A stretch of 64,000 bases of DNA from an uncultured Mycoplasmatota bacterium (GTDB lineage Bacteria; Bacillota_I; Bacilli_A; RF39; UBA660). The notes under the pieces are model-generated. The model was not told where the DNA came from and did no database searches. It saw nothing but the letters and a program-made list of their open reading frames with translations. Shown here one piece after another: positions 1 to 13,216 of this stretch. Position 1 is the first letter of the stretch; every line of letters starts with the position of its first letter. Location: assembly GCA_900553395.1 (NCBI GenBank), contig USDJ01000008.1:2689-66688 (forward strand). Reading direction: 5' to 3'. Both the position numbers and the translations under genes were made by a program.

Positions 1-425
1 TTAGTATCATGAGTAGCCAAAAGAATACTTTGTTTTGTAAGAATCTTACCAGTTTTACTACTACTACTATCCTTAATAGTTAACTTACTATTAAAACCAT
101 AATGGTAATTATTAACTGATTCATCATAATCAGACATTCCATATTCAAATTCAAGATTATATGTTCCTGTATCTAATGAACGACCATTCAAATCTAGAGT
201 AATGTCATTTATAACATAAAACTTTAGGTGGTTTGTTAAAGTAATATCTTTTGCCAGTTTAATTTCATTTATCTCAGAATCAAATCCTTTTGATGCATTA
301 ATTAGCTCTTCCTCATTCTCTACTGTGATTGTTTTTGCATTTACATTAGTTAGTCCAATGGTGAAAACTGCTACTAATGTAAATAATATCATAGTCAATT
401 TTTTGACTAATTTAGATTTGCTCAT
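1..425 (-). CDS. Secreted protein, N-terminal part (gene runs off the left edge of the window)
   Basis: ATG at 425-423 follows a GGAGGAAG RBS, and the frame stays open to position 1. The N-terminus MSKSKLVKKLTMILFTLVAVFTIGLTNVNA looks like a signal peptide. It is absent from the ORF track because there is no stop in the window. Confidence 0.6.
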   Translation of the reverse strand, partial: MSKSKLVKKLTMILFTLVAVFTIGLTNVNAKTITVENEEELINASKGFDSEINEIKLAKDITLTNHLKFYVINDITLDLNGRSLDTGTYNLEFEYGMSDYDESVNNYHYGFNSKLTIKDSSSSKTGKILTKQSILLATHDT

Positions 426-448
426 CAAATCTTCCTCCTTTCTATATA

Positions 449-515
449 ATTATACTATTTTTTCACTTTCTTTAATAGATGAAAAAAGTCATATTATTTT
501 TGTGAAAAATATGAC
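449..515 (-). promoter_or_regulatory. Promoter region with conserved 30-bp + 11-bp block (copy A) upstream of the secreted-protein gene 1..425
   Basis: On the minus strand: -10 TATAAT (449-454), then a 30-bp block at 460-489 identical to 2028-2057, and an 11-bp block at 505-515 identical to 2073-2083. Both blocks have the same 5-nt and 15-nt spacings as in copy B. Confidence 0.55.
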
Positions 516-543
516 TTTTGACACATTTTAAATATTTAATACC

Positions 544-768
544 TTAATTTACTACGGCTACACAATAAACTTCTAATTTTTGCCCTCCAACAGTAGTTGC
601 AGTAATAGTAGCAGATGAATTGGTAGGAGCATTTACTTTTCCAATACAAGTAGTATCATTTGTTGTAACACTTTCTGAAATAGTTCCACTTATAGACCAT
701 TTAACACTTTGATTTGATTTAACAGTAAAATCATTAGAGCCAGTATTAAAATATCTATTTTTATCATT
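544..768 (-). pseudogene. Start-less Ig-like (Big_2-like) domain fragment
   Basis: A 74-codon open frame (NDKNRYFNTGSNDFTVKSNQSVKWSISG...ATITATTVGGQKLEVYCVAVVN*) with no ATG/GTG/TTG start. It is bounded upstream by an in-frame TAA (769-771). A hydrophobic MIKIDILILALMILLL leader lies in another frame. Confidence 0.3.
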
Positions 769-809
769 TTAATTATTTTTACTCTTTTTTACTGAATACT
801 TTCTTAATA

Positions 810-1997
810 TTAATTAACAACCATCTTTATATCAACAAAGAATTTTTGTTCTGCTTTTGTTTTTGCGTGTAATCTTACATCACCACTAACTCTACTAATA
901 GCACCCGTTGATGCTACAATAGTATCAAAAGAATAACCACCTTTTACAGATGTTGATGTTTTACTTATAAAATCTTTATATGTATATTCATAGCTTACTG
1001 ATGAAGTTAAAGTTACATCCCAAGTTACATTTTGATTTGCAGTTACATAATAACCATTACTATCTCCATAAAAAGAAGCATATTTACTATAAGACTCTCC
1101 TTTTGATGTTAATTCTAAGTCTTTTTCATAATAAATTGTTTGCTCAGCAGTAGTTCCACTTGGTGTTTTTGCATAAACTTTAATCGCTGCACCTTTTGAA
1201 CATGCACCATTATTTTTAGCTGTAATAACTCCAGTTTTAGCATCAATACCCATACATAATGTATTACTTAATGAGTATGTAACATCTCCTGTAGCATTTT
1301 CTACTTTTGCGCTCGCTTTTGCTGTTTTTATTCCATTATAATGAATTGTATCTCTTGATAAGCTTAATGTAATTTTTTCTGGTTTAACTTCAATCGTAGG
1401 TTCTTCTTTCTTCTCCTCTACTTTTTCCCATTTAGCATATAAAGTTGTATCTTCACTTAGTAATGCTTTATCATAAATTGGTCTATCATTAACATCAACC
1501 CAACCTTTAAAAGTATAACCTTTATAAGTAGGATCTTTTGGTAGTGTTAGTTCTGTTCCTTTATTTATAGTAATAGCATCAACATTTGATCCACCTTTAC
1601 TATCAAAAGTAACAGTAATAGTTTCAACCACTCCCTCATATACCGCTTTTAATTTGATATTTTTATTTATTTTAGTTTTAAAGTCATAAGGTTTATCTGC
1701 TAAAACATCTTTTCCATCTTTTTCTTCTAAAATTAAATACCAATCAATAAACTGTTCTCCTAAATCTTCTTTTGTTTTAACATCTTTACTATTAATGGTT
1801 TTATTGTATTTAACATATACTACTTCTTCTTTTGTACCATTATTATAATCAAATGTTACTTCAAATTTACGATTAAAGAACCATAATAAGAATAAAATAA
1901 CTATTAATAGTAATAGACCAGCTACTATTAAAATAATATTTCTTTTCTTATTGTTTTTAGAAGTTTTTTCTTCTTTTTCTTTACTTTTAGTAAACAT
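810..1997 (-). CDS. Membrane-anchored surface protein with Listeria-Bacteroides-type (Flg_new) repeats and an Ig-like segment
   Basis: Lys-rich N-terminus plus one TM helix (IILIVAGLLLLIVILFLLWFF). Repeats of the type TFD..GG......G......P.DP.YKGYTFKGW. AGGAGGAGATAGT RBS before the ATG. Confidence 0.7.
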   Translation of the reverse strand: MFTKSKEKEEKTSKNNKKRNIILIVAGLLLLIVILFLLWFFNRKFEVTFDYNNGTKEEVVYVKYNKTINSKDVKTKEDLGEQFIDWYLILEEKDGKDVLADKPYDFKTKINKNIKLKAVYEGVVETITVTFDSKGGSNVDAITINKGTELTLPKDPTYKGYTFKGWVDVNDRPIYDKALLSEDTTLYAKWEKVEEKKEEPTIEVKPEKITLSLSRDTIHYNGIKTAKASAKVENATGDVTYSLSNTLCMGIDAKTGVITAKNNGACSKGAAIKVYAKTPSGTTAEQTIYYEKDLELTSKGESYSKYASFYGDSNGYYVTANQNVTWDVTLTSSVSYEYTYKDFISKTSTSVKGGYSFDTIVASTGAISRVSGDVRLHAKTKAEQKFFVDIKMVVN

Positions 1998-2016
1998 ACT
2001 ATCTCCTCCTAATAAT

Positions 2017-2083
2017 ATTATATATTATTTTCACTTTCTTTAATAGATGAAAAAAGTAATACAAATTTAAGAAAAAATATGAC
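2017..2083 (-). promoter_or_regulatory. Promoter region with conserved 30-bp + 11-bp block (copy B) upstream of surface-protein gene 810..1997; divergent from the response-regulator gene
   Basis: Minus-strand TATAAT at 2017-2022, 30-bp block at 2028-2057 and 11-bp block at 2073-2083. Blocks are identical to copy A with identical spacing. Confidence 0.55.
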
Positions 2084-2176
2084 AAAAGTAATAGTCTTTC
2101 TATTAAACTCATTGTTTTATATATGAAAAAATCAACTTTGATGATATAATATTTATATATTCTTGAGGTGAATATT

Positions 2177-2806
2177 ATGGTAAATAAGAAGAAAATAATG
2201 ATTATTGAAGATCAAGCACTACTTAACAATATGTTAAAGAATACTTTATCAAATGATTATGATATTGTCTGTACATGTACTAGTGCTAAAGATATGATGA
2301 ATTTATATAAAAAATATAAACCTGATTTAATATTAACTGATGTAGTTACTAAAGAAGGTGCTAATGGTATAGAATATGCCAAAGAAGTAAAAGATAAATA
2401 TCATAACAAAGTAAAAATACTTGCTATTACTGGTGTACCAGAAATTACTTTTTTAAATACTGCTAAAGAATATAATTTAGATGGACTAATATATAAAGAC
2501 ACAGATAGTGAATCATTACTTTTTAGTATCAGTCAAGTTCTAAAAGGATATACTCTATTTCCAGATAATTGTATGTATAGTGAAGAAAGCGAAAAATTTA
2601 AAGAGCTTTCAGATAAAGAAATTAAAATAATAAGATGTATATGTGAAGCTAAAGATAGAGATGAAATTGCCGAAGAATTAAATATAACCTCAGGTACTTT
2701 AAAAAATTATATTTCAAATATTCTTACTAAACTAGGTTTTGATAATATAACTAAACTTACTATATTTTGTTTAAGTAACGGATATATTGTTCCTAATCAA
2801 AAATAA
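2177..2806 (+). CDS. Response regulator, REC + LuxR/NarL-type HTH
   Basis: REC pattern (IMIIEDQ...DLILTDV...) and a C-terminal LuxR HTH (LSDKEIKIIRCICEAKDRDEIAEELNITSGTLKNYISNILTKLG). The ATG at 2177 has a GAGGTG RBS 7 nt upstream, so it is preferred over the GTG at 2168. Confidence 0.85.
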   Translation: MVNKKKIMIIEDQALLNNMLKNTLSNDYDIVCTCTSAKDMMNLYKKYKPDLILTDVVTKEGANGIEYAKEVKDKYHNKVKILAITGVPEITFLNTAKEYNLDGLIYKDTDSESLLFSISQVLKGYTLFPDNCMYSEESEKFKELSDKEIKIIRCICEAKDRDEIAEELNITSGTLKNYISNILTKLGFDNITKLTIFCLSNGYIVPNQK

Positions 2807-2846
2807 AGAAGAAATATTTTGTAAAATTTATTTCTTCTTTTTTATG
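2805..2846. terminator. Bidirectional rho-independent terminator between convergent regulator and kinase genes
   Basis: Hairpin AAGAAGAAATA...TATTTCTTCTT with A-run and T-run flanks. Confidence 0.6.
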
Positions 2847-3957
2847 CTTTTATTATTAATTTAAAATTATCATCAGTTATAACTTTTAAACTACCATTTA
2901 TATTAGATAATTTTTTACGCATTCCTTTAAGTCCTTCATTTTCAAATATAACACTTTTTGGTTTATTACCATCATTTGTTATAACCATTTCTATATAATT
3001 ATCACGAGCAGTTATAACTACTTTAATATTTTTACTATTAGCGTGAATAATAGCATTAGTAATAGCTTCTCTTATTATTTCAAAAAATACTATACCTTTT
3101 TCTTCATCTATAGGTAAAGCACCAAAAACTTTAACATTTATTCCTATAATACTATACATATTTATCAAGTTTTTTAATTTTTCATTGCTATCTAATTTTG
3201 AATTAAAATCTTCATAAATACTATCTAATAATTTTAATATGTTATTTATATCCTTATTTTCTTGTTCTAAATATTTATCAAACAAAGCAAGTCTATACCC
3301 TATTATATCGTGATATTCATTTTTAAGTTTTAATAAGTTCTTTTCTCTTTCTAATTCCTCAACATTTTTAATAGCAAGTAATAATTTATCATTATTTTCT
3401 TTAATTTGTTTATTTTGTTTCTTTTCTTCTTCTTGTAAAGAATATAACTCTGTTATATCTATTAAAGATACTTCTTTATTATCATATATATTTAACATAT
3501 ATACTTTATCATTATGCTTTAGTAGATAATTATTATTTACTTTCTTAAAACTTCTCTTTATTAGATTGTTTATAAAGTCTTCAGTAATATTTAGTCCTTT
3601 TAAAATATCAGAAAATAAATTATTTATTAAAATAATATTATTATCATCTAAAAACATTATTCCAGTATCAGATGCATCAATACCTTTTTTAACAGATAAA
3701 ACTGATATATATTCATTTTTACATAATTTTTCATATATAAAACTAATCAAAATATAAATTGATAATAACAAAGATAAATACATAGTTATTTTAGAAATAT
3801 CAAGTAAATTAAAATACTCTAATATAACCATAACTATTAATATTAATAATTCAAATATTTTTTTAATACTTGATGCATCTTTTCTTAAAAAATTACTAGA
3901 TACTCTAGCAACTTGTATTAATGTAATTATAATGGTAATTATAAGTAATAATTTCAT
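2842..3957 (-). CDS. Sensor histidine kinase, NarL-class (HisKA_3-type H-box)
   Basis: N-terminal TM helices, H-box EYHDIIGYRLAL, N-box EAITNAIIHA, G-region ITNDGN...EGLKGMRKKL. Confidence 0.8.
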   Translation of the reverse strand: MKLLLIITIIITLIQVARVSSNFLRKDASSIKKIFELLILIVMVILEYFNLLDISKITMYLSLLLSIYILISFIYEKLCKNEYISVLSVKKGIDASDTGIMFLDDNNIILINNLFSDILKGLNITEDFINNLIKRSFKKVNNNYLLKHNDKVYMLNIYDNKEVSLIDITELYSLQEEEKKQNKQIKENNDKLLLAIKNVEELEREKNLLKLKNEYHDIIGYRLALFDKYLEQENKDINNILKLLDSIYEDFNSKLDSNEKLKNLINMYSIIGINVKVFGALPIDEEKGIVFFEIIREAITNAIIHANSKNIKVVITARDNYIEMVITNDGNKPKSVIFENEGLKGMRKKLSNINGSLKVITDDNFKLIIKA

Positions 3958-5477
3958 TTTATAACACCACCTTTTATAACAAATTCTAGTTTTGTATCTG
4001 TATCATATACTTTTTCTTTTACCAAAACACTAGAATCTATTTTTATTTTATTCTTTAAAGATTTATCAGTATCTACAATAGCTTTTAGTTTAACATTCTT
4101 ATTTTCTTTAGAAATAAATAATACAATAGATTTATCATTACTACTTTCTATAAGTTCATATACAATATCATATAATAAAGACATTGTATTACCGTTTATT
4201 ATCATCTTATTATTAATACTAATAAAACTCTTTATATTAGCACTCTTCATACTATTTAATAATTCATCTAATAATGCTTTAATTCCATTTTCATTATAAG
4301 AATCTCCATTAATTTCAGATATTATTAACATACTTTTCTTTTTACTATATATAATTATTCTTTTAACTTTTTCAAAATCTTTTGTGGATACATCTTTCTT
4401 TTTTAATATCTTTTTAATCTCATTTCTTTTTTCAGTTAGTTTTAATTCAACTTTATCTATAACATCTTTTCTTATCTGCATTTCATATAATTCTTTTTTA
4501 GTTTTTTCTTCTAATCTTATACTTTCTTGTTGTTCAAGTAATTCTTTCTTTTGTTCATTTATTTCTTTTTCAAGTTCAAGAATACTAGATAAATCTTTTT
4601 TTAAGATAACATAACTATCTTTGTTCTTTTTTATATCATAAATAATATTTTTATTTTTATATGTTTCTTTTACACTATTATTATTTATATCATCTAATAA
4701 TTTTTTAGGAATATTATCAAACACATTCGTAGTATATTTAGTTTTACCATCCAATGAAATAATAGCCATATTTAAATTAGAATTAGAAAATCTACTTTTG
4801 TATTTACTATTATTAGGAATTAGATTTAGATAAAAAGCAAGTTCAATGCCTACACAAATTAATGCACTATTAACAATGGACATATTTATACCTCTTACAT
4901 AAGGAACATTTAACACATAAAGAATTGTGTATGTAAGACCTAGTAATATTACTATAAATGGTAAAAATCCTTTTATATCTTTTTTTATTTTCATTCTATA
5001 AATCGCTAAATCTATTAAACTTTTGCTAAATAAATAAAATATCCAAATAGATATTAAATAATATCCTATAAAATGTTTATAATCATCAAATAAAACTATT
5101 CCTTTAACAAATTTAAATACTAATTCGTGAAAATCATTAGTTAAAACAAGGAGTAATAAAAAGCACGAAATTGAATATATAATTTTTTTCTTTGTTTTAT
5201 TCATTTTACCTAATAATGATAATGAACTAATATAATATAGTGTTGGAATAAAGATTAGTGGCAAATAATACAGATACCAACACATTCTTTCTGTTAGTGG
5301 AGAAACTGCAATTCCTTTTATAATTCTTATTAACATCCAAAATACAATAAGTAATCCAATAAGCAAAATATATCTTCTTGTCTTCTTATCATACAGTTTA
5401 TAATAAAGTCTTATTGTCCAAATAGTGAACAATATAGCAAATAAAAATGTAATAAACTTATTCATAGTATTATCCAC
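3954..5477 (-). CDS. Multi-pass membrane sensor-like protein (7TM-type N-terminus, coiled coil, C-terminal module lacking kinase motifs)
   Basis: At least six hydrophobic helices in residues 1-230. Coiled coil EKEINEQKKELLEQQESIRLEEKTKKELYEMQ. No H-, N- or G-box seen. Its TGA overlaps the kinase ATG (ATGA at 3954-3957). Confidence 0.6.
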   Translation of the reverse strand: MDNTMNKFITFLFAILFTIWTIRLYYKLYDKKTRRYILLIGLLIVFWMLIRIIKGIAVSPLTERMCWYLYYLPLIFIPTLYYISSLSLLGKMNKTKKKIIYSISCFLLLLVLTNDFHELVFKFVKGIVLFDDYKHFIGYYLISIWIFYLFSKSLIDLAIYRMKIKKDIKGFLPFIVILLGLTYTILYVLNVPYVRGINMSIVNSALICVGIELAFYLNLIPNNSKYKSRFSNSNLNMAIISLDGKTKYTTNVFDNIPKKLLDDINNNSVKETYKNKNIIYDIKKNKDSYVILKKDLSSILELEKEINEQKKELLEQQESIRLEEKTKKELYEMQIRKDVIDKVELKLTEKRNEIKKILKKKDVSTKDFEKVKRIIIYSKKKSMLIISEINGDSYNENGIKALLDELLNSMKSANIKSFISINNKMIINGNTMSLLYDIVYELIESSNDKSIVLFISKENKNVKLKAIVDTDKSLKNKIKIDSSVLVKEKVYDTDTKLEFVIKGGVIK

Positions 5478-5614
5478 CTCTTTTCTTAAAAAAATAAGTA
5501 ATAGCTAATACTATTATAATATATTTTACAAAATATTTAAATAATCTTATCAGTTTTTAGGTAAAGCAATGACTTTTAACTATAATTTTGTTAGAATATA
5601 TTTCGTGATAAATA

Positions 5615-6106
5615 GTGAATAAAAAAACTAAAATTATACTATCAATAACTATAATCATTTCTTTATTACTACTAATTTATTCTATTGTAAATATAGTTAT
5701 TTGGAAAAACGATTCTAATAAAACTAATAAACAAATTGAAGATATACAAGAAGAAATTAAAGTTACTGAAGTAGTTGATACAGAAAATACAGAAATAATA
5801 GAACCAGAAGAAGAAATACCAAAATCTAATCCATATTGGGATTATATAAAAATGAATATGATAGATATTAACTTTAATGAATTAAAAAGCATCAATAATG
5901 ATGTTAAAGATTGGATTAAAGTAAATGGTACTAATATAAATTATCCTTTCGTGCAATCTAACAATAATAAATATTATTTAACACATAGTTTTGATAAATC
6001 TTATAATTCAGCTGGTTGGTTATTTCTATATTATAGAAATAATATAAATAATAATAAAATTCTAAATCATCATATAACTCTATTACCTTGGCATCTTTGT
6101 TGGTAG
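5615..6106 (+). pseudogene. Class B sortase gene, truncated at about the catalytic-His region
   Basis: TM anchor, then WIKVNGTNINYPFVQSNNNKYYLTHSFDKSYNSAGWLFLYYRN, which matches the SrtB N-terminal half. Similarity is lost at ...KILNHH, and the TLxTC Cys and the Arg are absent. Confidence 0.6.
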
Positions 6107-6301
6107 TTAATTTTTTATAATTACTAGTGTTAATATCATAAGAACGATTGTTTATTTTTCTACTATTCTTTACATGATTTGAAGTATAGTTCAAACATCC
6201 TTTTGGCTGCTCCAAATTAAGCTCTGGGTGGTATATATTACCATCATAGGCAAAATCATTGGTAGTATAGACTTCCATAATATCTAATGACTTAATACCA
6301 T

Positions 6302-6521
6302 TTAAGGGGTAATTAAAGAACTTAAAAATGTTCTTGTAGTAACACCAAGATTACAAGAATTCTCTACTACTTCAAGATATGTTTCTGCTCCGTGTCCCCC
6401 GTGCTTCCAACAGTGAAGAGTCGCTCCTCCTACTGTCACAGCGCCACTATCAAAATAAGTATCATTATTTAAATCAACTATTTTTTCTTCTAGTGAAGCG
6501 GCTAAAGTTATTATTTTGAAA
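6302..6521 (-). pseudogene. PBP transpeptidase-domain fragment (continuation of 12274..13151 after the SxxK serine), itself truncated after ~73 codons
   Basis: Minus-strand translation is (T)FKIITLAASLEEKIVDLNNDTYFDSGAVTVGGATLHCWKHGGHGAETYLEVVENSCNLG.... This matches the region following STFK in SpoVD/FtsI-type PBPs. The frame then ends at the TAA at 6302-6304. Confidence 0.7.
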
Positions 6522-6534
6522 GTAACCCCCGAAA
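6516..6534. other. Left att junction (PBP 3' flank / element arm)
   Basis: + strand TTATTTTGAAAGTAACCCCCGAAAACG (6511-6537). Confidence 0.7.
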
Positions 6535-6552
6535 ACGATAACTAAACAAAAT

Positions 6553-6595
6553 AAAAAAAGACTAGATTACCATATAAATATATGATAGCCTAGTC
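6553..6595 (-). terminator. Rho-independent terminator after the recombinase gene
   Basis: Minus strand: GACTAG...CATATA-TT-TATATG...CTAGTC hairpin followed by TTTTTTT. It overlaps the TAG stop. Confidence 0.55.
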
Positions 6596-8320
6596 AATGT
6601 CGTAACTTAAATATACATTAATTTTAAAACTATTTCTTTGAAAATCAGATCTTCCTAGATCTAATGTTTCAATATCTTTACTAAATATAGGTAGTGATTT
6701 ATCATCATCTATGTGCCTAGCACCTTTTCCAGTAGGAATTGGTTTTTTCAATAAATTCAGATAAATTTTTAGCATTAATTTATGTCTATCATTGTCCTCC
6801 TTATAGACTATAATTTTCTCCAAAAACTTATCTACAAATTCACTAACATTATTTTTATAATCAACTTGCTTTTTAATAGCATCTTCAATAATATTGATAT
6901 TACCAAAACTATCAGACATAATCTTTCTTTCTTGTTCTATTTTTCCAATTCTTATATTTAAAGATGATATATCTTCATTATATTTATCATTTCTTTCTTT
7001 AAATTCTAGGTTATTAATACTACCATCAATATTCAATTCTAATAACTTTTCTTTTTTTGTTTCAATAGTTTTGATTTCATTTTTTAATTTTGAAATTTCA
7101 AATTGATAATTGTTATCTATTTTTAAATTAGAATAATAATCTAACATTTCTTTTATAATTTCATTTTTATTATTAAATACTTGTTCCATAATAATTACAA
7201 AAATATTATTCAAGTCCATTTCTGCAATTATTGGACTTTCACAAGCATCTAGTCTATATTTTACATAATTACCACAAGCCCATCTAGGCTTCGTTTGTTT
7301 TCTTTTACTTGACATTCTCTGGTAAGAAACATTATGTTCACTACAAAATATTTTTGTAGTATAACAATATTTTCTTTCGGCTCTTTTGGCATTACCATTA
7401 CTTGCTTTCATTAGTGTACTTCTGCTATCTAATATCTCGTTTGCACGATTCCATAATTCTTCACTAACTATGGCTGGTATTGATTCATCTTTATATATTA
7501 CTTGTTCTTCTATTGGTATATAAACTCTTTGTTTAGTTCTATAATCAATAATTTCAGTAGTATGTCCACGATAAAAACCTTTATATTTAGGATTCTGTAT
7601 AATTCTCTTTAATGTATCCTTATCATAAATATTTCCTTTATAATTATTTATACCTTGCCTGTGTAATTCCATTGCTAATTTATAAAAACCATATTTACCA
7701 GTAGCATATAATTCAAAAATTTTTCTTATTTTTTTGGCTTCTTCTTCTACAATCACTAATTTAGCATCATCTTTTTTATAACCAGTAATTATATTAGAAC
7801 CTAAAACTCTACCTTTTTTTATTGCTTCTTTGTGTCCCCATTTAACACGAGAAGAAAGTCTTTTGACTTCTTCTTGAGCAACACTTCCCATCATATTAAG
7901 TATAAATTCAGAGTTAGGATCATAAGTATTTATTCCATTTGATTGAAAATATACACCAACATCATTAGCAAGTAATTCTTGTGTATATTTGATACTATCA
8001 GATAAATTTCTAGAAAATCTAGAAACTTCTTTTGTAACTATTAAATCAAAATAGCCAGATTTAGCATCATCAATCATTTGTAAAAATTTTTTTCTTCGTT
8101 TAACAGTGCTACCACTAATGCCTTCATCTATGTAACCATTAATATAAGTCCAATTTCTATTTGACTTTATAAAGTTTTCAAAAAAAGATATTTGGTTATC
8201 TAAAGAGTTCAATTGTTCATCGCTTTCAGTAGAGACACGAGCATAAAAAGTAACTCTTAAAGGCAGATCGGCAATGTTTTTGCCTTTTAAGATTTCTTCT
8301 CTGACTTTATAGAATCTCAT
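6590..8320 (-). CDS. Large serine recombinase (integrase)
   Basis: N-terminal resolvase catalytic domain (VTFYARVSTESDEQLNSLDNQ), recombinase domain, Cys-containing zinc-ribbon-like segment (CSEHN...WACGNY...C) and a long C-terminal coiled coil. GGAGGTAGATT RBS. Confidence 0.9.
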   Translation of the reverse strand: MRFYKVREEILKGKNIADLPLRVTFYARVSTESDEQLNSLDNQISFFENFIKSNRNWTYINGYIDEGISGSTVKRRKKFLQMIDDAKSGYFDLIVTKEVSRFSRNLSDSIKYTQELLANDVGVYFQSNGINTYDPNSEFILNMMGSVAQEEVKRLSSRVKWGHKEAIKKGRVLGSNIITGYKKDDAKLVIVEEEAKKIRKIFELYATGKYGFYKLAMELHRQGINNYKGNIYDKDTLKRIIQNPKYKGFYRGHTTEIIDYRTKQRVYIPIEEQVIYKDESIPAIVSEELWNRANEILDSRSTLMKASNGNAKRAERKYCYTTKIFCSEHNVSYQRMSSKRKQTKPRWACGNYVKYRLDACESPIIAEMDLNNIFVIIMEQVFNNKNEIIKEMLDYYSNLKIDNNYQFEISKLKNEIKTIETKKEKLLELNIDGSINNLEFKERNDKYNEDISSLNIRIGKIEQERKIMSDSFGNINIIEDAIKKQVDYKNNVSEFVDKFLEKIIVYKEDNDRHKLMLKIYLNLLKKPIPTGKGARHIDDDKSLPIFSKDIETLDLGRSDFQRNSFKINVYLSYDID

Positions 8321-8331
8321 AATCTACCTCC

Positions 8332-8490
8332 TTAGCATTTTTTTACCTCTTTACTATAATGATTGATTTTCTCATGAATAATTTTACAAACTTCTTCATA
8401 TTGTTGTTTAGTAATGATACCTTTATCATATATTTTTTTGTTAATTATTAATTCATATTCGAGGACAACTATTCTTGGAGTTTCAAACAT
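8332..8490 (-). CDS. Small 52-aa protein co-transcribed with the recombinase (candidate accessory/directionality factor)
   Basis: Not in the ORF track. GGAGGTG RBS 8 nt before the ATG. Product: MFETPRIVVLEYELIINKKIYDKGIITKQQYEEVCKIIHEKINHYSKEVKKC. Its stop lies 11 nt before the recombinase ATG. Confidence 0.55.
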   Translation of the reverse strand: MFETPRIVVLEYELIINKKIYDKGIITKQQYEEVCKIIHEKINHYSKEVKKC

Positions 8491-8575
8491 ATAAAAACAC
8501 CTCCACTAATGGAAGTGTATGGTTTCTAGATAAGTTTGATTACTAATTGTATTTTATTTGACATTTTTTCCATAT

Positions 8576-8962
8576 TTAAAAATATGTTTCTCTTAATTTC
8601 TTCGACATTTCTTCATCATCAACTGAATGTATTGAATGATTCCCTAATTTGCAAAAATCTCTTACTTCTTGTTTAATTTCTCTTACTTTATTTTCTGTTG
8701 AAAAAACATAAAAAAATTTTACAAAATCGATTTTACTATCAAAGCAAGAATTCATCTTATATTTTATTCCTTCCCAATCATTACTGGCATTGCCTATCCA
8801 TGATTCTCCTTGATATAAAGTATATATTAATTTAAATTTTTCTTGTTTATCTAATTTCGTTTGTTTTTCATCAATAATAATTAAATTATCTTTTATTATA
8901 TTTTCTATAAAACTCCAATTATTAAAACTAACCGGAAATAAAACTAACATATAATGTTGCAT
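8576..8962 (-). CDS. Cargo gene 5: hypothetical protein, possibly nucleoside-diphosphate-kinase-like fold
   Basis: By-eye colinearity with NDK: YMLVLFP ~ TLVLIKP, and GNHSIHSVDDEEMSKKLRETYF ~ GRNVIHGSDSVESAEREIALFF (His retained). This is weak evidence. Confidence 0.3.
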   Translation of the reverse strand: MQHYMLVLFPVSFNNWSFIENIIKDNLIIIDEKQTKLDKQEKFKLIYTLYQGESWIGNASNDWEGIKYKMNSCFDSKIDFVKFFYVFSTENKVREIKQEVRDFCKLGNHSIHSVDDEEMSKKLRETYF

Positions 8963-8968
8963 ATTTTA

Positions 8969-9487
8969 CTATCGTATAACCTCAATTATTTCAGCAGGTG
9001 AGATGTTTTCAATTTCAGTAACTGATTGAATTGCCATTTGATGGAAAACAAAAATAATACATTCATAATTATTATATTTCTCGATTATATCTTGAACTCT
9101 TTTTTTCAAATGTTCTTTTGATTCCCAGTTCACTACCCTATCAACTGGTGGAACACCACTGTTCTTAATATAATCTTTATAATATTCTTTCATTTCTTTA
9201 GCTTTATATTGATATGTTTTATCAGGCTCCCACTCTCTCAAATCAGGTTCTATTTTTATATCTAGGCCTGTTTCTTTTGATATAATTGCTGCTGTTTGCA
9301 ATGCTCTAGTATATGGTGAAGACACGATGAGTGATGCTTCTTTCAAGCGTGGATCTTTAGATGTCTTTATTACATCATCAATATATTCATCACTTAATTT
9401 AGCTAAATCATGTCCGTGCCCAATAAAATTATGGGCATCACCATAACTATAATCTGCTTTACCGTGTCTTATCATAAAAATCTTCAT
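8969..9487 (-). CDS. Cargo gene 4: histidine phosphatase (phosphoglycerate-mutase superfamily)
   Basis: RHG motif (FMIRHGKADY), SSPYTRALQTA and a second His (VFHQM). Confidence 0.8.
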   Translation of the reverse strand: MKIFMIRHGKADYSYGDAHNFIGHGHDLAKLSDEYIDDVIKTSKDPRLKEASLIVSSPYTRALQTAAIISKETGLDIKIEPDLREWEPDKTYQYKAKEMKEYYKDYIKNSGVPPVDRVVNWESKEHLKKRVQDIIEKYNNYECIIFVFHQMAIQSVTEIENISPAEIIEVIR

Positions 9488-9491
9488 ATAT

Positions 9492-10085
9492 TCATCTCCT
9501 TAATTTTAATGACTTGCATATACATTCACTGGCGTATGCTTTACTTTTTCCAGTTGTGTCAATAAATTCCTTCCTTGACCATATTTCCATTATATCATAA
9601 AATTCGTTTTGATAAAATTCAAAATCATTTTTGACCCAATTATTTTGTAAAATTTTGTCTCTATTTAAATTCCTTTTTAGTTTTTCACTTGAATCTGCTG
9701 TTAAAATAAATGTTATATCTGGGTTAACATACCATGCTTGATTTATCATATCTTTATATATTCTAAGCGCATTATCATAACCATTGTATTTACCTAATTT
9801 TAAGAAGGCGTATGAAACCGCTAAAATTGAAAGATAACTTCTTTCCATAAATACTATTTTGTTTCGTTTCAATAATGATGATGCTAATATCATCCTCTCT
9901 TTTTCTATTTCAAGAAAAATTTGTTGATTTTTTAATTCTTCTTCTATATTCTTTGATGGTTTAGGTGATAATGGATGATCCATAAATTCCTCAATTATTT
10001 CGACATTTGGAATTTCACTCAAAATTCTTGATGTAGTTGTCTTGCCGGAATTAGACGCTCCTTCTATTACATATAAATTTTTCAT
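9492..10085 (-). CDS. Cargo gene 3: P-loop kinase, deoxynucleoside/nucleotide-kinase-like
   Basis: Walker A GASNSGKTT, an ERS motif (FMERSYLS) and an Arg/Lys-rich lid-like segment (EKLKRNLNRDK). Confidence 0.55.
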   Translation of the reverse strand: MKNLYVIEGASNSGKTTTSRILSEIPNVEIIEEFMDHPLSPKPSKNIEEELKNQQIFLEIEKERMILASSLLKRNKIVFMERSYLSILAVSYAFLKLGKYNGYDNALRIYKDMINQAWYVNPDITFILTADSSEKLKRNLNRDKILQNNWVKNDFEFYQNEFYDIMEIWSRKEFIDTTGKSKAYASECICKSLKLRR

Positions 10086-10094
10086 TATATATCA

Positions 10095-11390
10095 CTACCT
10101 TTCTGTTTTATATTTCTTCATTTTAAAATTGAATATGGAATATAAAGGACCCATATTAGATATAAATGTAGAGACACAAACAGCACATATCAGACTTAAC
10201 TTATTGTTAATTTTTTTGTTTTCCAGTTTTTCTATAAGTTTTATTGTACTTAGATAAACACATATTTGCATAAATATATAAGAAAATATTGATATTACAA
10301 GCAAAATAATATTTCTATAATATATACCAATTGCAAACGGCAAAATAATAATAATTGACCACAATAGCCAACTTAAATTCATACGAACTCTTTGAAAAAG
10401 CCAGTTTTTACATGAATTGGAAATTTTTTTATCTTTTTTTAGGTTACTTTTTATCATCTTAACCCATTGATTAGAAGTTCTAAACCAGTTAGCATTTTGC
10501 TTGATTAATACTGATATATTTTTGGGCGTTTCCATGTTTTCTAGTTTTAAAACAGGAGTAATCTTAATATTTCTATTTCTAATAATTGAGCTCATGTATA
10601 TATCTTCACACCAAAATTTATTATTAAATCCTTCGATTTTTCTTAGTATGTCCAATCTGATATACAATCCATGTCCAACAACATAAGTGTATAATAAATT
10701 TGGAAAAGTTAAGGAGTTTATCAAGCCATATTTTATTTCAAAATTACTTTGGTAAAGTGCAAATCCCTTCATGATAAATGAAAGATTTTCTAAATTGCTA
10801 AACGCATAAGAGTACTGCTGTATTATTTCTGGGTAATCTTGATTTTTAATTATATTCAAAACACTATTTATCGTGTCTAAATTTGGTCTACTGTCTGCAT
10901 TATATACAGAAAAATATATTTTTTTACTATTGTTATAATTTTTGTATTCTTTCATTACGTAATTTAGCTGATCCGCCATTATTCCGTCTTTATATGGATA
11001 ATGTAAAAGTTTGACTTTATTTATCTTATTTTCGTTGATATATTCATTTACCACATCAAATGTTGTCTTGTTTATTTCTTGCTTGGTCAAAAGCTGTTCG
11101 TATTTTTCTTTTTCTGTTGTCACAATAATTAATTCTATATTATCTTTATCGTTTATTAAATTCAAAAAATAATCTATTGTTTCTTTTATAACAGATTGCT
11201 CTCGCAGACAAGGAATGATAATTAGTATTTTACAATCTGAAAGCCTATTATTATTATTTTTATATACTCTTATACTTTTAATTTTTCTTTTAGCTATACA
11301 AGTTTTTAACATATTCCAAAATGCATTTATGATTTCTAAAGCTACTATTATCCAATAAATTATTAATAATATACCTTTCATAAATTCCAC
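10095..11390 (-). CDS. Cargo gene 2: membrane-embedded family-2 glycosyltransferase (synthase-like)
   Basis: N-terminal TM, GT-A core (LIIIPCLREQ..., VYNADSRP), KQNANW resembling QxxRW and several C-terminal TM helices. Confidence 0.7.
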   Translation of the reverse strand: MEFMKGILLIIYWIIVALEIINAFWNMLKTCIAKRKIKSIRVYKNNNNRLSDCKILIIIPCLREQSVIKETIDYFLNLINDKDNIELIIVTTEKEKYEQLLTKQEINKTTFDVVNEYINENKINKVKLLHYPYKDGIMADQLNYVMKEYKNYNNSKKIYFSVYNADSRPNLDTINSVLNIIKNQDYPEIIQQYSYAFSNLENLSFIMKGFALYQSNFEIKYGLINSLTFPNLLYTYVVGHGLYIRLDILRKIEGFNNKFWCEDIYMSSIIRNRNIKITPVLKLENMETPKNISVLIKQNANWFRTSNQWVKMIKSNLKKDKKISNSCKNWLFQRVRMNLSWLLWSIIIILPFAIGIYYRNIILLVISIFSYIFMQICVYLSTIKLIEKLENKKINNKLSLICAVCVSTFISNMGPLYSIFNFKMKKYKTER

Positions 11391-12031
11391 CCCTTCCCTT
11401 TTGCTAAATTATCAATCGTCTCACAATAACTATCAAGCATTCCACGACTAATGAAAAATTCTTTATCATATTTAGCATCTAGTAAGTCAAAAACTAAAAA
11501 TTGAACTTTAATTTTGAGATATAAACAAATAGCTAGTCGATGTGCACCATCGATCGGAATTCCTGTTTTACTTATAGGTATTATAGTCTTGCTTAAGCCT
11601 TCTGCTTTTATAGATTCAATTAATATGTTAAAATTGTCAATAAAATTATCTGGACTAGATTTACTTCCATCAGGTTCAAAAAAATTATTAAAGGCTTTAA
11701 TATGCGATAAATATATTTTTTTAGCCAAGTCATAGTCTTTCTTTTCAATATAACTTTTTACATAAAAATATTTCACATAGATATCATATCTATAACGAGA
11801 TGTCAATTTTTCGGGACTACATTCATACATGTAATATTGTTTTCTTTTTTCTAGCAATGAATATATATAGTGATTATTAATAAGTTTGTTCGCATCATTT
11901 TCATCTATAATCTTAATTAGCTTACTATTTTTTATAGGACTCATATTAATATTGGTGATAACTATATTGGAACTATTATAAAATTTATCAAATATTATTT
12001 TTCCCATATTAGGTATTTCTTTGGTCCTCAT
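11378..12031 (-). CDS. Cargo gene 1: hypothetical protein with ParB/sulfiredoxin-like DGxHR motif
   Basis: IPIDGAHRLAICLYL resembles the DGxHR box of ParB/Srx-fold proteins. It overlaps the GT2 gene by 13 nt. Confidence 0.35.
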   Translation of the reverse strand: MRTKEIPNMGKIIFDKFYNSSNIVITNINMSPIKNSKLIKIIDENDANKLINNHYIYSLLEKRKQYYMYECSPEKLTSRYRYDIYVKYFYVKSYIEKKDYDLAKKIYLSHIKAFNNFFEPDGSKSSPDNFIDNFNILIESIKAEGLSKTIIPISKTGIPIDGAHRLAICLYLKIKVQFLVFDLLDAKYDKEFFISRGMLDSYCETIDNLAKGKGWNL

Positions 12032-12092
12032 ACTATTATCACATCCAATATAAATATTTAATCAAGATAATTTAAAGTGTTTATCGAGAAGT

Positions 12093-12121
12093 AGTATACA
12101 GTTTATATATAATTTTGTCAA
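12093..12121 (-). promoter_or_regulatory. Sigma-A-type promoter inside the element, driving the cargo operon
   Basis: Minus strand TTGACA-17 nt-TATACT (TTGACAAAATTATATATAAACTGTATACT), about 60 nt upstream of the first cargo ATG. Confidence 0.6.
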
Positions 12122-12253
12122 CCTGTATTTACCTAATTAAATAAAAGATGGAAATCTGCTTTTAAAGCTGTCAAAGACTTATATAGTTATAAGCTTTGAA
12201 TTAAATTCAATAAATATGCATAATTAAAAAAAATCAGCATACTAATATATTGC

Positions 12254-12279
12254 TTTCGGGTGTTACAATATTAAAAGTA
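12254..12279. other. Right att junction (element arm / PBP 5' flank)
   Basis: + strand GCTTTCGGGTGTTACAATATTAAAAGTAGAACC (12252-12284). Confidence 0.7.
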
Positions 12280-13151
12280 GAACCTGGTTCATATGTCATC
12301 CAAATTGGAAGATTTCTATTTATTTGCTCTACAGTATAATTTTTATAATTACTAGGGCTAAAATCTGGACGTGATGATATAGCGAGTATTTCTCCACTAT
12401 TCGGATCCATTACTATACCTAGTGCTTGATCTGGATTATATTGACTAATAGCATTATCAAGTTCCCTTTCTAGTGCCTTTTGCAAATCAAAGTTTATAGT
12501 AAGCGTCATATTAACCCCACTTTGTGGTTGTTCATATACCTGTGACATAGAAAGACTATTACCTTTAGCATCACTAAAATATTTTATAGCCCCATCACTA
12601 CCAGTTAAATATTTATCATATATTAATTCCAGACCACTTAAACCCTGATTATCTATTCCAACAAATCCAATAGTATGTGATAATAAATTATCATAAGGAT
12701 AATTCCTTTTTGCCTCTTTTACTAAATACACACCTTTTAATCCTAAAGAGTTTATCTTATCGGCTATATCATAGCTTAAGTTTCTTCCTTCGGGATGAAC
12801 TCTTTCTATCGAAGTTTTCTTTGATACGTGCGAATACATATTTTCATAACTAACATTAAGTATTTCAGAAAGCTTACTTGCAGTTAAACTCTTATCTTCT
12901 ATCTGATTTGGTATTAAGATAAGTGAAGTCGTAGTAATATTACCAGCTAGTTCTACTCCGTTTCTATCATATATTATTCCTCTATTAGCAGCAAGCGGTA
13001 AATTTCTGCTCCATAAACTTGTAGCATACTTATTTAATTTTTTGTAATCTATTACTTGAATATAAAAAACCTTAAAAATTATTAAAAAAAATAAAAATAG
13101 TGTTGCAAATATTATAATTTTAATCCTTACGTGTATACTTTTAAAAAACAT
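12274..13151 (-). pseudogene. Class B penicillin-binding protein (SpoVD/FtsI-like), 5' part up to the SxxK motif
   Basis: TM anchor and PBP dimerisation domain, then ...IWMTYEPGSTF. After that the ORF reads into element DNA (NIVTPESNILVC*, stop at 12234). The ATG at 13151 has a GGTGAT RBS. Confidence 0.8.
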
Positions 13152-13216
13152 TTTATCACCACTTAAATTTATGAATAAAAACATATATTAATTCAAAAAT
13201 TATAAATAGTAGTAAT

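Follow-up and report, generated by a model that had tools for sequence, protein, structure and literature searches.

The stretch of DNA analyzed here, hereafter the window, comprises 64,000 nucleotides of contig USDJ01000008.1 and carries on its minus strand a spoVD gene that is split by two site-specific elements, E1 and E2. E1 occupies window 6518-12272 (5755 bp with one copy of the core counted, GC content 25.6%) within the codons of the catalytic S-T-F-K motif, and all of its genes are co-oriented with spoVD; six co-oriented open reading frames (ORFs) lie between the spoVD pieces, and the gene for a 576-aa large serine recombinase (LSR), int1, comes last. E2 splits the gene again at its SxN motif. 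We consider both elements to be probably skin-like: their integrases, with small proteins acting as recombination directionality factors (RDFs), would excise them in the mother cell and restore spoVD, and the elements would be kept in the forespore.

The preliminary description of this DNA placed an LSR element in the SxxK codons of a class B penicillin-binding protein (PBP) gene, and the sequences and coordinates quoted there are all correct. The minus-strand ORF 13184..12234 reads ...IWMTYEPGSTF (NRNLPIWMTYEPGSTF) and then runs into unrelated sequence (NIVTPESNILVC, followed by a stop codon), and the minus strand read from 6520 gives FKIITLAASLEEK (FKIITLAAS) and continues to ...ENSCN. Both pieces match adjacent parts of one model in Pfam/NCBIfam searches (TIGR02214 positions 3-297 and 291-349). 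A search with the protein joined in silico retrieved an uninterrupted allele, P0001, that is 99% identical and is found on two gut-metagenome contigs from ENA, L001 and L002. On either flank, L001 and L002 run collinear with the window (98.3% identity over 7668 nt and 99.5% over 5167 nt); they lack window 6518-12272 and represent a natural empty site. The adjacency of the two fragments in one homologous PBP and a related uninterrupted allele carrying the predicted attB are what the preliminary description had proposed to look for, and both were found. The junctions and fragments are as follows.

Window 6518-12272, minus strand: element E1, absent from L001 and L002; end to end, it is 93% identical to the copies in L097 and L112, both from other species.
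Window 12252-12291: junction between the spoVD 5' fragment and E1, core TT at 12271-12272, as located from the empty site in L001/L002 and from 17 related elements.
Window 6497-6537: junction between E1 and the spoVD middle fragment, core TT at 6516-6517, placed by att comparison.
Window 12273-13151, minus strand: spoVD 5' fragment, residues 1-293, ending in ...EPGSTF, with PBP_dimer and the start of Transpeptidase (TIGR02214 3-297).
Window 6350-6515, minus strand: spoVD middle fragment, KIITLAAS...ENSCN, residues 294 (from codon base 3) to 349 (TIGR02214 291-349).

The likely true start of spoVD is the ATG at 13151, and the longer ORF begins at 13184. In gene orientation, the attB of L001/L002 is GGTTCTACTTTT-AA-AATAATAAC, attL is GGTTCTACTTTT-AA-TATTGTAACACCCGAAAGC, and attR is CGTTTTCGGGGGTTACTTTC-AA-AATAATAAC. 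The dinucleotide AA is all that the three have in common (TT at 6516-17 and 12271-72 on the plus strand), and it corresponds to bases 1-2 of the Lys294 codon in S-T-F-K. The deduced attP is TTTCGGGGGTTAC-TTTC-AA-TATT-GTAACACCCGAAA, whose arms are complementary at 12 of 13 positions with the core exactly central. The crossover is identical in 17 further elements of the same family, 16 of which yield a full reconstructed attP; in these relatives the arms reach approximately 18 bp (ATCGTTTTCGGGGGTTAC / GTAMCACCCGAAAGCGAT), and the attP consensus of the window element and the 17 relatives is ATCGTTTTCGGGGGTTACTTTC-AA-TATTGTAMCACCCGAAAGCGAT. The att sites with a central TT crossover that had been predicted from the window are thus matched to the exact position by the attB of L001/L002 and the attP of the relatives, and the target in the SxxK codons is borne out by the natural empty site and the related elements. 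Likewise, the integrase gene does adjoin the left end, with int1 stopping 72 nt from the left junction. Judged from sequence, an empty site with a 2-bp central core is the signature of a serine integrase, and the 2-bp central exchange within short att sites composed of imperfect inverted half-sites points to an LSR.

The reconstituted protein scores 712.3 bits on TIGR02214, the equivalog model for stage V sporulation protein D (cut-off 688), an intact relative on L018 scores 720 bits, and the clade's other class B PBP reaches only 318 bits. In L018, the genes a few positions downstream include mraY and a SEDS gene that matches spoVE best, and ldh follows shortly downstream of spoVD with a queuosine-precursor transporter gene between them; in other relatives the gene occupies the position of Bacillus subtilis spoVD in the dcw cluster (mraZ-rsmH-ftsL-PBP-x-spoVD). 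These matches identify the interrupted PBP as the SpoVD equivalog, the sporulation-specific class B PBP of the cortex, and mother-cell expression of spoVD is presumed by analogy with B. subtilis. A generic class B PBP was rejected because the score exceeds the equivalog cut-off. The earlier statement that a class B PBP catalytic motif is hit therefore stands, but the target is the sporulation-specific SpoVD (712 vs 688 bits), not a generic PBP.

The C-terminal piece of the gene present in the window ends at ...ENSCN because a second junction lies at window 6350, and a tblastn search of the window did not recover the remaining 286 codons of the PBP. These were found by walking the source contig past the left edge of the window. 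Scaffold_3 of ENA ERZ28619677 (L087, 296 kb) is 100% identical to window 1-11997 and contains E2 as a 13,156-bp element (L087:5649-18804) that runs 6.8 kb past the left window edge.

Window 1-6352, minus strand: the part of E2 inside the window, L087 being the same contig as the window.

The outside part of E2 closes with an 82-aa small ORF and int2, a 572-aa serine recombinase that is 41% identical to int1 and lies 6.8 kb beyond the left window edge; int2 is directly followed in L087 by a 298-aa ORF with Transpeptidase and PASTA, which is the spoVD 3' fragment (residues 350-635), and then by ldh. The ends of E2 form an 11-bp perfect inverted repeat in attP, GTAACACCAAG-CAAT-CTTGGTGTTAC, and the crossover falls within the Asn codon of S-C-N, with the core ATT at 6350-6352 (plus strand) corresponding to Asn349. 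Excision of E1 alone would leave spoVD broken because E2 splits the gene at the SxN motif. Removal of both E1 and E2 in silico yields an uninterrupted 635-aa protein with STFK, SCN, KTGT, and PASTA; the reading frame is thus restored in the natural empty site for E1 and upon in silico removal of E1 and E2. E2 is present in all conspecific contigs seen, and E1 is polymorphic.

E2 carries genes for a two-component system and for surface proteins as cargo, along with a truncated sortase B gene. Its cargo within the window consists of this sortase B gene, a pair of HisKA_7TM kinases, a response regulator of the LuxR type, and a Flg_new surface protein. The sortase B gene (5615-6106, plus strand) is cut short at approximately position 126 of the 235 in the model, overlaps a 106-aa ORF encoded on the other strand (window 5615-6278), and represents decayed cargo at the spoVD-proximal end of E2.

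Interrupted spoVD copies do not show the decay expected of dead genes. Stop codons are absent from 21 interrupted N-terminal fragments, and dN/dS between interrupted alleles ranges from 0.03 to 0.36, with most pairs at 0.03-0.13 and values up to 0.36 where substitutions are few. In the comparison of L093 and L122, dS is 0.14 for the integrase and 0.18 and 0.09 for the host fragments, with dN/dS of 0.03-0.11; this parallel divergence of integrase and flanks argues for an insertion older than the split of these two lineages and for purifying selection on both gene and integrase since then. Purifying selection on interrupted copies in turn implies that the gene is regularly reconstituted, and a dead gene is hard to reconcile with it.

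Interruption of spoVD is common in the clade. Across 80 GTDB species representatives the gene is intact in 52 and broken in 20, and in 8 a contig ends exactly at a break position. The breaks fall at residue 293/294 (STF/K), at residue 349 (SCN), and at approximately residue 415 (TPIQQ), with a fourth site near residue 560, where a recurrent truncation follows ...QYGGTV (P0003, P0017). In L089 (5572-19719), spoVD is in four pieces owing to three serine-recombinase elements, one each at STFK, SCN, and PIQQ, and AAA_14/DUF4143 ATPase genes are present in two of them. Each site has a separate integrase clade, the clades being 39-51% identical to each other, and the elements are all co-oriented with spoVD. 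Clusters of int1 relatives comprise hundreds of sequences from gut metagenomes. Each of the 25 metagenome loci that extend past the integrase on its downstream side, as well as four additional locus sets, shows an int1 relative followed within approximately 70 nt by a spoVD fragment beginning with TFKII. A transposon with loose target choice was rejected given the use of one site in 25/25 loci.

Integrases that are 90-97% identical occur in hosts whose SpoVD is 55-75% identical to that of the window, and the full 5.75-kb E1 is 93% identical in L097 and L112. These comparisons indicate that E1 spreads horizontally between species. The family also includes minimal 2.8-kb forms composed of a histidine phosphatase gene, the small ORF, and the integrase gene, without transfer genes.

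Other arrangements are found at the same sites. In L090:751-10734 (also L091 and L092), the same spoVD site is occupied by a larger element with a 70%-identical int1 relative at its end. Its genes include those for a MobL relaxase, a coupling protein of the TraG/VirD4 type, and a DNA methyltransferase, and it may represent the mobilizable ancestor type. In L094:7734-16467, an STFK-site integrase is immediately followed by a defense-type island (a Macro-domain protein, GmrSD, and the HsdR and HsdM subunits of a type I restriction-modification system), and the rest of spoVD does not come after the island. The SCN site in L003:11033, L007:11033, and L022:11030 has element ends unrelated to E2 (e.g., CCTAGTATGCGACCTAGAGA), and therefore a different element family uses the same codon; the first 10 kb of these elements include Y-family polymerase, YolD, and helix-turn-helix genes. 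Orphan spoVD fragments are present upstream of an intact or separately interrupted spoVD in L032:52-267, L045:4447-6397, L120:1693-3048, L007:4867-4974, and L026:8075-8185. They mostly consist of the SCN-PIQQ or the STFK-SCN segment, those of L045 and L120 adjoin an integrase, which in L120 is truncated, and they may be relics of composite excision or duplication.

The gene content of E1, from its 3' to its 5' end with respect to the window, is as follows.

Window 11378-12031, minus strand: 217-aa cargo ORF with no family match.
Window 10095-11390, minus strand: 431-aa membrane protein, weakly glycosyltransferase-2-like (PF13632, E 2e-4, below cut-off).
Window 9492-10085, minus strand: 197-aa P-loop kinase, dTMP/deoxynucleoside-kinase-like (PF02223, 33 bits; phrog_761).
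Window 8969-9487, minus strand: 172-aa protein of the histidine-phosphatase superfamily (PF00300, E 4e-18), also in L101 and L093.
Window 8576-8962, minus strand: 128-aa cargo ORF with no family match.
Window 8497-8521, minus strand: CATACACT, a putative sigma-E-type -10 box (8521-8514), overlapped by a 9-bp hairpin (8518-8497) in which the GGAGG ribosome-binding site of the small ORF is paired; a T run comes next.
Window 8332-8490, minus strand: 52-aa small ORF directly upstream of int1, candidate RDF (AF2 pLDDT 83.5).
Window 6590-8320, minus strand: int1, 576-aa large serine recombinase with the catalytic motif YARVSTESDEQ (PF00239, PF07508, PF13408; phrog_95, 1e-106).

The histidine phosphatase (8969-9487; L101:2068-2586; L093:1701-2219) is the sole cargo kept in the minimal and the divergent STFK-site elements; any tie to phosphorelay or nucleotide metabolism would be purely speculative. 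Searches of E1 against PHROGs recovered no phage structural, packaging, or lysis genes, the matches being limited to the integrase, the thymidylate-kinase-like protein, and one family of unknown function; a prophage identity of E1 was rejected on this absence of phage genes. No relaxase, oriT, or coupling protein was found in E1 with Pfam and NCBIfam, and PADLOC gave a single sub-threshold match in its cargo. int1 contains a resolvase-type catalytic domain with a serine nucleophile (PF00239, E 1.8e-33, residues 25-171) and a C-terminal recombinase domain (PF07508, E 9e-19); its zinc ribbon scores 24.2 bits on PF13408, just below the 25.3 cut-off, and close homologs are annotated with PF13408. 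The closest solved structure is 3g13, the catalytic domain of a Clostridioides difficile conjugative-transposon recombinase (E 1e-36). The top NCBIfam matches, CcrC and CcrB, are far under their cut-offs, and the match to the XisF model is weak (74 bits, cut-off 375), such that int1 is not an XisF equivalog.

Both spoVD and the recombinase cassette of E1 are preceded by a similar promoter-like octamer. The mother-cell -10 consensus of B. subtilis is CATACA-T for sigma-E and CATA---TA for sigma-K.

Window 13166-13173, minus strand: CATAAATT, a putative sigma-E/K-type -10 box 22 nt upstream of the spoVD start codon.

The pattern CATA.A.T, which agrees with this consensus, lies at -22 to -26 from the spoVD start codon in 56 of 79 related species; within 60 nt upstream it is found before spoVD in 58 of the 79, versus 32 of 754 other ORFs (4%) in the same loci. 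In E1, a perfect CATACACT precedes the 52-aa ORF, 31 nt ahead of its start codon. Octamers of the CATACACT type occur only 10 times on both strands of the window, and CATA.A.T lies upstream of only 2 of 51 window ORFs. Conservation of the CATACACT box extends to E1 modules with unrelated upstream DNA, and in L099 TAATATT precedes the box with a spacing of 14 nt; with the exception of L099, matches to the sigma-E -35 element are too weak in this AT-rich sequence to count. The small ORF of E2 has CATATAGT at the same distance. A sigma-70 promoter scan gave background levels in AT-rich DNA (62 found vs 58 expected) and was not used.

Of the 12 integrases examined, 11 have a small ORF in front of them (47-86 aa, sharing a pattern), and all three clades are represented. 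The 52-aa protein of E1 is predicted to form a two-helix hairpin and is a candidate RDF. The skin element carries the Skr-SpoIVCA cassette, composed of a promoter, a small ORF, and an LSR gene (PMC6957869), and the order in the E1 cassette is the same. A hairpin, ACACTTCC-ATTA-GGAGGTGT followed by a T run (9 bp, -11.5 kcal/mol, z = -1.7), is conserved in E1-type modules, overlaps the CATACACT box, and pairs with the ribosome-binding site of the small ORF. We speculate that this hairpin could block expression by read-through from the cargo and leave transcripts that start inside it translatable. Given the SpoVD equivalog, the conserved sigma-E/K-type -10 box, and the purifying selection on interrupted copies, the comparison with skin-type elements made in the preliminary description is apt.

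We hypothesize the following mechanism. E1 is a small non-phage integrative element whose integrase, int1, would recognize a site of approximately 40 bp over the S-T-F-K codons and exchange strands at the AA of the Lys codon. E2 is probably an older insertion, made likewise at the Asn codon of S-x-N, and the gene is thereby left in three pieces. During sporulation, a mother-cell sigma-E-type factor would transcribe spoVD and the small ORF-integrase cassette of each element, and the small helical protein would act as the directionality factor that makes each integrase run attL x attR. Both elements would then leave the terminally differentiated mother-cell chromosome as circles and intact spoVD would be expressed for cortex synthesis, with the forespore retaining the elements for vertical inheritance. 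In vegetative cells, the hairpin over the -10 box and the sequestered ribosome-binding site would keep cargo read-through from expressing the cassette.

The likeness to known systems is closest for skin in sigK (SpoIVCA and Skr of B. subtilis, CD1231 and CD1234 of C. difficile), which also splits the coding sequence of a mother-cell sporulation gene, has an LSR next to one end, and restores the frame by excision (for E1, in silico and in the empty site); its small ORF, Skr, lies just upstream of the recombinase behind a sigma-E-type promoter (PMC6957869), the corresponding promoter of E1 being predicted. In contrast to E1, skin targets sigK instead of spoVD and consists of prophage remnants of 14-48 kb, whereas E1 has 5.8 kb (relatives down to 2.8 kb) and no phage genes. 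Also unlike skin, E1 shares its gene with a second element (and in relatives with a third) and is spreading between species, and its excision is a prediction. The gin element in gerE of B. cereus ATCC 10987 (GirC and GirX) resembles E1 in being non-phage and in encoding a serine recombinase together with a tiny accessory protein, GirX, of 42 aa, occurs in several strains, and is thought to be horizontally mobile (PMC5595907); it differs in its size (28.6 kb), its three recombinase genes and 9-bp overlap (one recombinase and a 2-bp core in E1), its target gene, and its host order. SP-beta in spsM, phi3T in kamA, and yin in yabG are likewise LSR elements that interrupt mother-cell genes, in which gene reconstitution is linked to sporulation and a small RDF under sporulation promoters sets the direction (PMC4191935, PMC6957869, PMC10747680); these are active or defective prophages, whereas in E1 and E2 the integrase matches phage families and, apart from it, only two cargo proteins without a structural role do so, namely the histidine phosphatase and the kinase.

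Outside sporulation, the heterocyst elements of cyanobacteria (nifD, fdxN, and hupL, with XisA, XisF, and XisC) are excised developmentally in a terminally differentiated cell, as proposed for E1, and XisF is an LSR like int1; phylum, developmental program, and target genes differ. Some genomes have several heterocyst elements within one gene, and the presence of several site-specific elements in spoVD resembles heterocyst nif interruptions more than any sporulation case. The non-phage LSR elements of Firmicutes (Tn5397 with TndX, Tn4451 with TnpX, clostridial conjugative transposons, and SCCmec with Ccr) resemble E1 in the 3g13 structure and the weak CcrC/CcrB matches, and share relaxase and coupling-protein genes with E1 relatives, E1 itself being without transfer genes. 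Unlike these elements, E1 uses one exact site in a coding sequence, as seen in 25/25 loci, the window, and four other locus sets.

Several points weigh against developmentally timed excision. RF39, the order to which we assign the host, has no cultured member and sporulation there is only predicted; sporulation genes are absent among the approximately 50 window ORFs scanned, 64 kb being too small a sample for a conclusion. The sigma-E/K assignment would hold by analogy to the B. subtilis consensus and comes with weak -35 matches, and the PIQQ-site integrases have no CATA box. The small ORF belongs to no Pfam, NCBIfam, PADLOC, or PHROG family and matches no known RDF, and a Foldseek search of its model against the PDB gave nothing below E = 0.2. 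Searches with degenerate patterns for attP or the circular junction found none in JGI metagenome contigs, IMG/VR, or 131 fetched loci; because mother-cell DNA would be rare, this null is uninformative rather than negative, and the absence is expected under excision in a terminal cell, yet is not evidence for such excision. Finally, the horizontal spread of E1 and the relaxase and coupling genes of some of its relatives imply that excision for transfer must occur, and this could be the sole excision.

That last point leads to the reading in which E1 is a purely selfish, integrative, and mobilizable element for which the conserved SxxK DNA of a gene dispensable for growth is a safe landing site. 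Excision would then serve transfer only, and carriers would form no normal cortex, or would do so only after rare germ-line excision. The near-identity of integrase and whole element across hosts with divergent SpoVD fits this view, as do the MobL relaxase and TraG/VirD4 coupling protein or defense cargo of relatives, the presence or absence of E1 among near-identical strains, and the intact spoVD of 52/80 species. We nevertheless regard it as rather unlikely, given that interrupted genes lack stops and frameshifts, have low dN/dS, and in one pair have co-diverged with the element, that a single gene, otherwise intact, can retain as many as three elements, that the minimal 2.8-kb forms have no transfer genes, and that a conserved sigma-E-type box precedes the recombinase cassette. 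The strain-level polymorphism of E1 between flanks otherwise 98-99.5% identical would also be compatible with a heritable on/off switch, in which reversible excision and re-integration in the germ line produce subpopulations able or unable to complete sporulation, as in active lysogeny or phage-regulatory switches; the yin element of C. botulinum is both integrated and excised within one culture (PMC10747680). This is improbable here in that E2 is found in all conspecific contigs seen, so that loss of E1 alone leaves the gene unrestored, and in that the attP junctions were not found in the JGI, IMG/VR, and fetched-locus collections.

A decaying spoVD pseudogene that accumulates mobile elements in a lineage that has lost sporulation would agree with the reduced genomes of RF39, with the reduced presence of spoVD reported for them in a survey (PMC10868615), and with the degenerate cargo of E2, whose sortase B is truncated. 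Against this, the three fragments join into a perfect 635-aa ORF that scores above the equivalog cut-off, the 21 fragments contain no stops and most interrupted pairs have dN/dS of 0.03-0.13 (up to 0.36), and the insertions occupy only three or four exact sites instead of random positions; we judge such decay very improbable. The window derives from a metagenome assembly, and a chimeric join might be suspected on that account, but independent assemblies from dozens of samples and projects contain the same junctions and exclude an artefact for practical purposes. Excision of skin-like elements in the mother cell, with restoration of spoVD, accordingly remains the interpretation that we hold to be probable.

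The closest genomes to the window are uncultured low-GC 'Bacilli' metagenome-assembled genomes with chromosomes of 1.3-1.5 Mb, including Ca. Coprosoma and Ca. Faecisoma, and they indicate that the host is an uncultured human-gut bacterium of GTDB order RF39, family CAG-822. RF39 is predicted from gene content to form spores, and the survey that made this prediction notes a reduced presence of spoVD in the order (PMC10868615). Split genes could contribute to this reduced presence, which may be partly an annotation artefact. More tentatively than for the two elements of the window, we suggest that RF39 would build its cortex transpeptidase gene through a developmentally timed series of excisions that removes as many as three or four independent serine-integrase elements, each locked on its own motif (SxxK, SxN, PIQQ, or approximately residue 560) and each with its own sigma-E promoter, RDF, and integrase. 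Such multi-lock DNA editing would be comparable to that of heterocyst nif genes, by elements that are still mobile and ferry cargo between species.

We found no report of spoVD as the target of an intervening element in the searchable literature; the targets already known are sigK, spoVFB, spoVR, spsM, gerE, kamA, and yabG, to which spoVD is new. Further differences from the known cases are the lack of phage genes, the small size, the active spread between species, and the presence of up to three or four site-specific elements per gene. One sporulation gene is a multi-site hotspot: elements with related but site-specific integrases divide it into as many as four pieces, and it is broken in at least a quarter of the species of the clade. 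The 2.8-kb forms come near a bare 'recombination unit' and are attractive for studying directionality control, and the three integrase clades with defined attP/attB pairs are candidate orthogonal tools for genome engineering. For gene surveys the finding is a caution, as a 'missing' spoVD in RF39 may represent a split gene. For the question of whether the reduced-genome RF39 sporulate, detection of the junctions in spore fractions would provide a direct handle.

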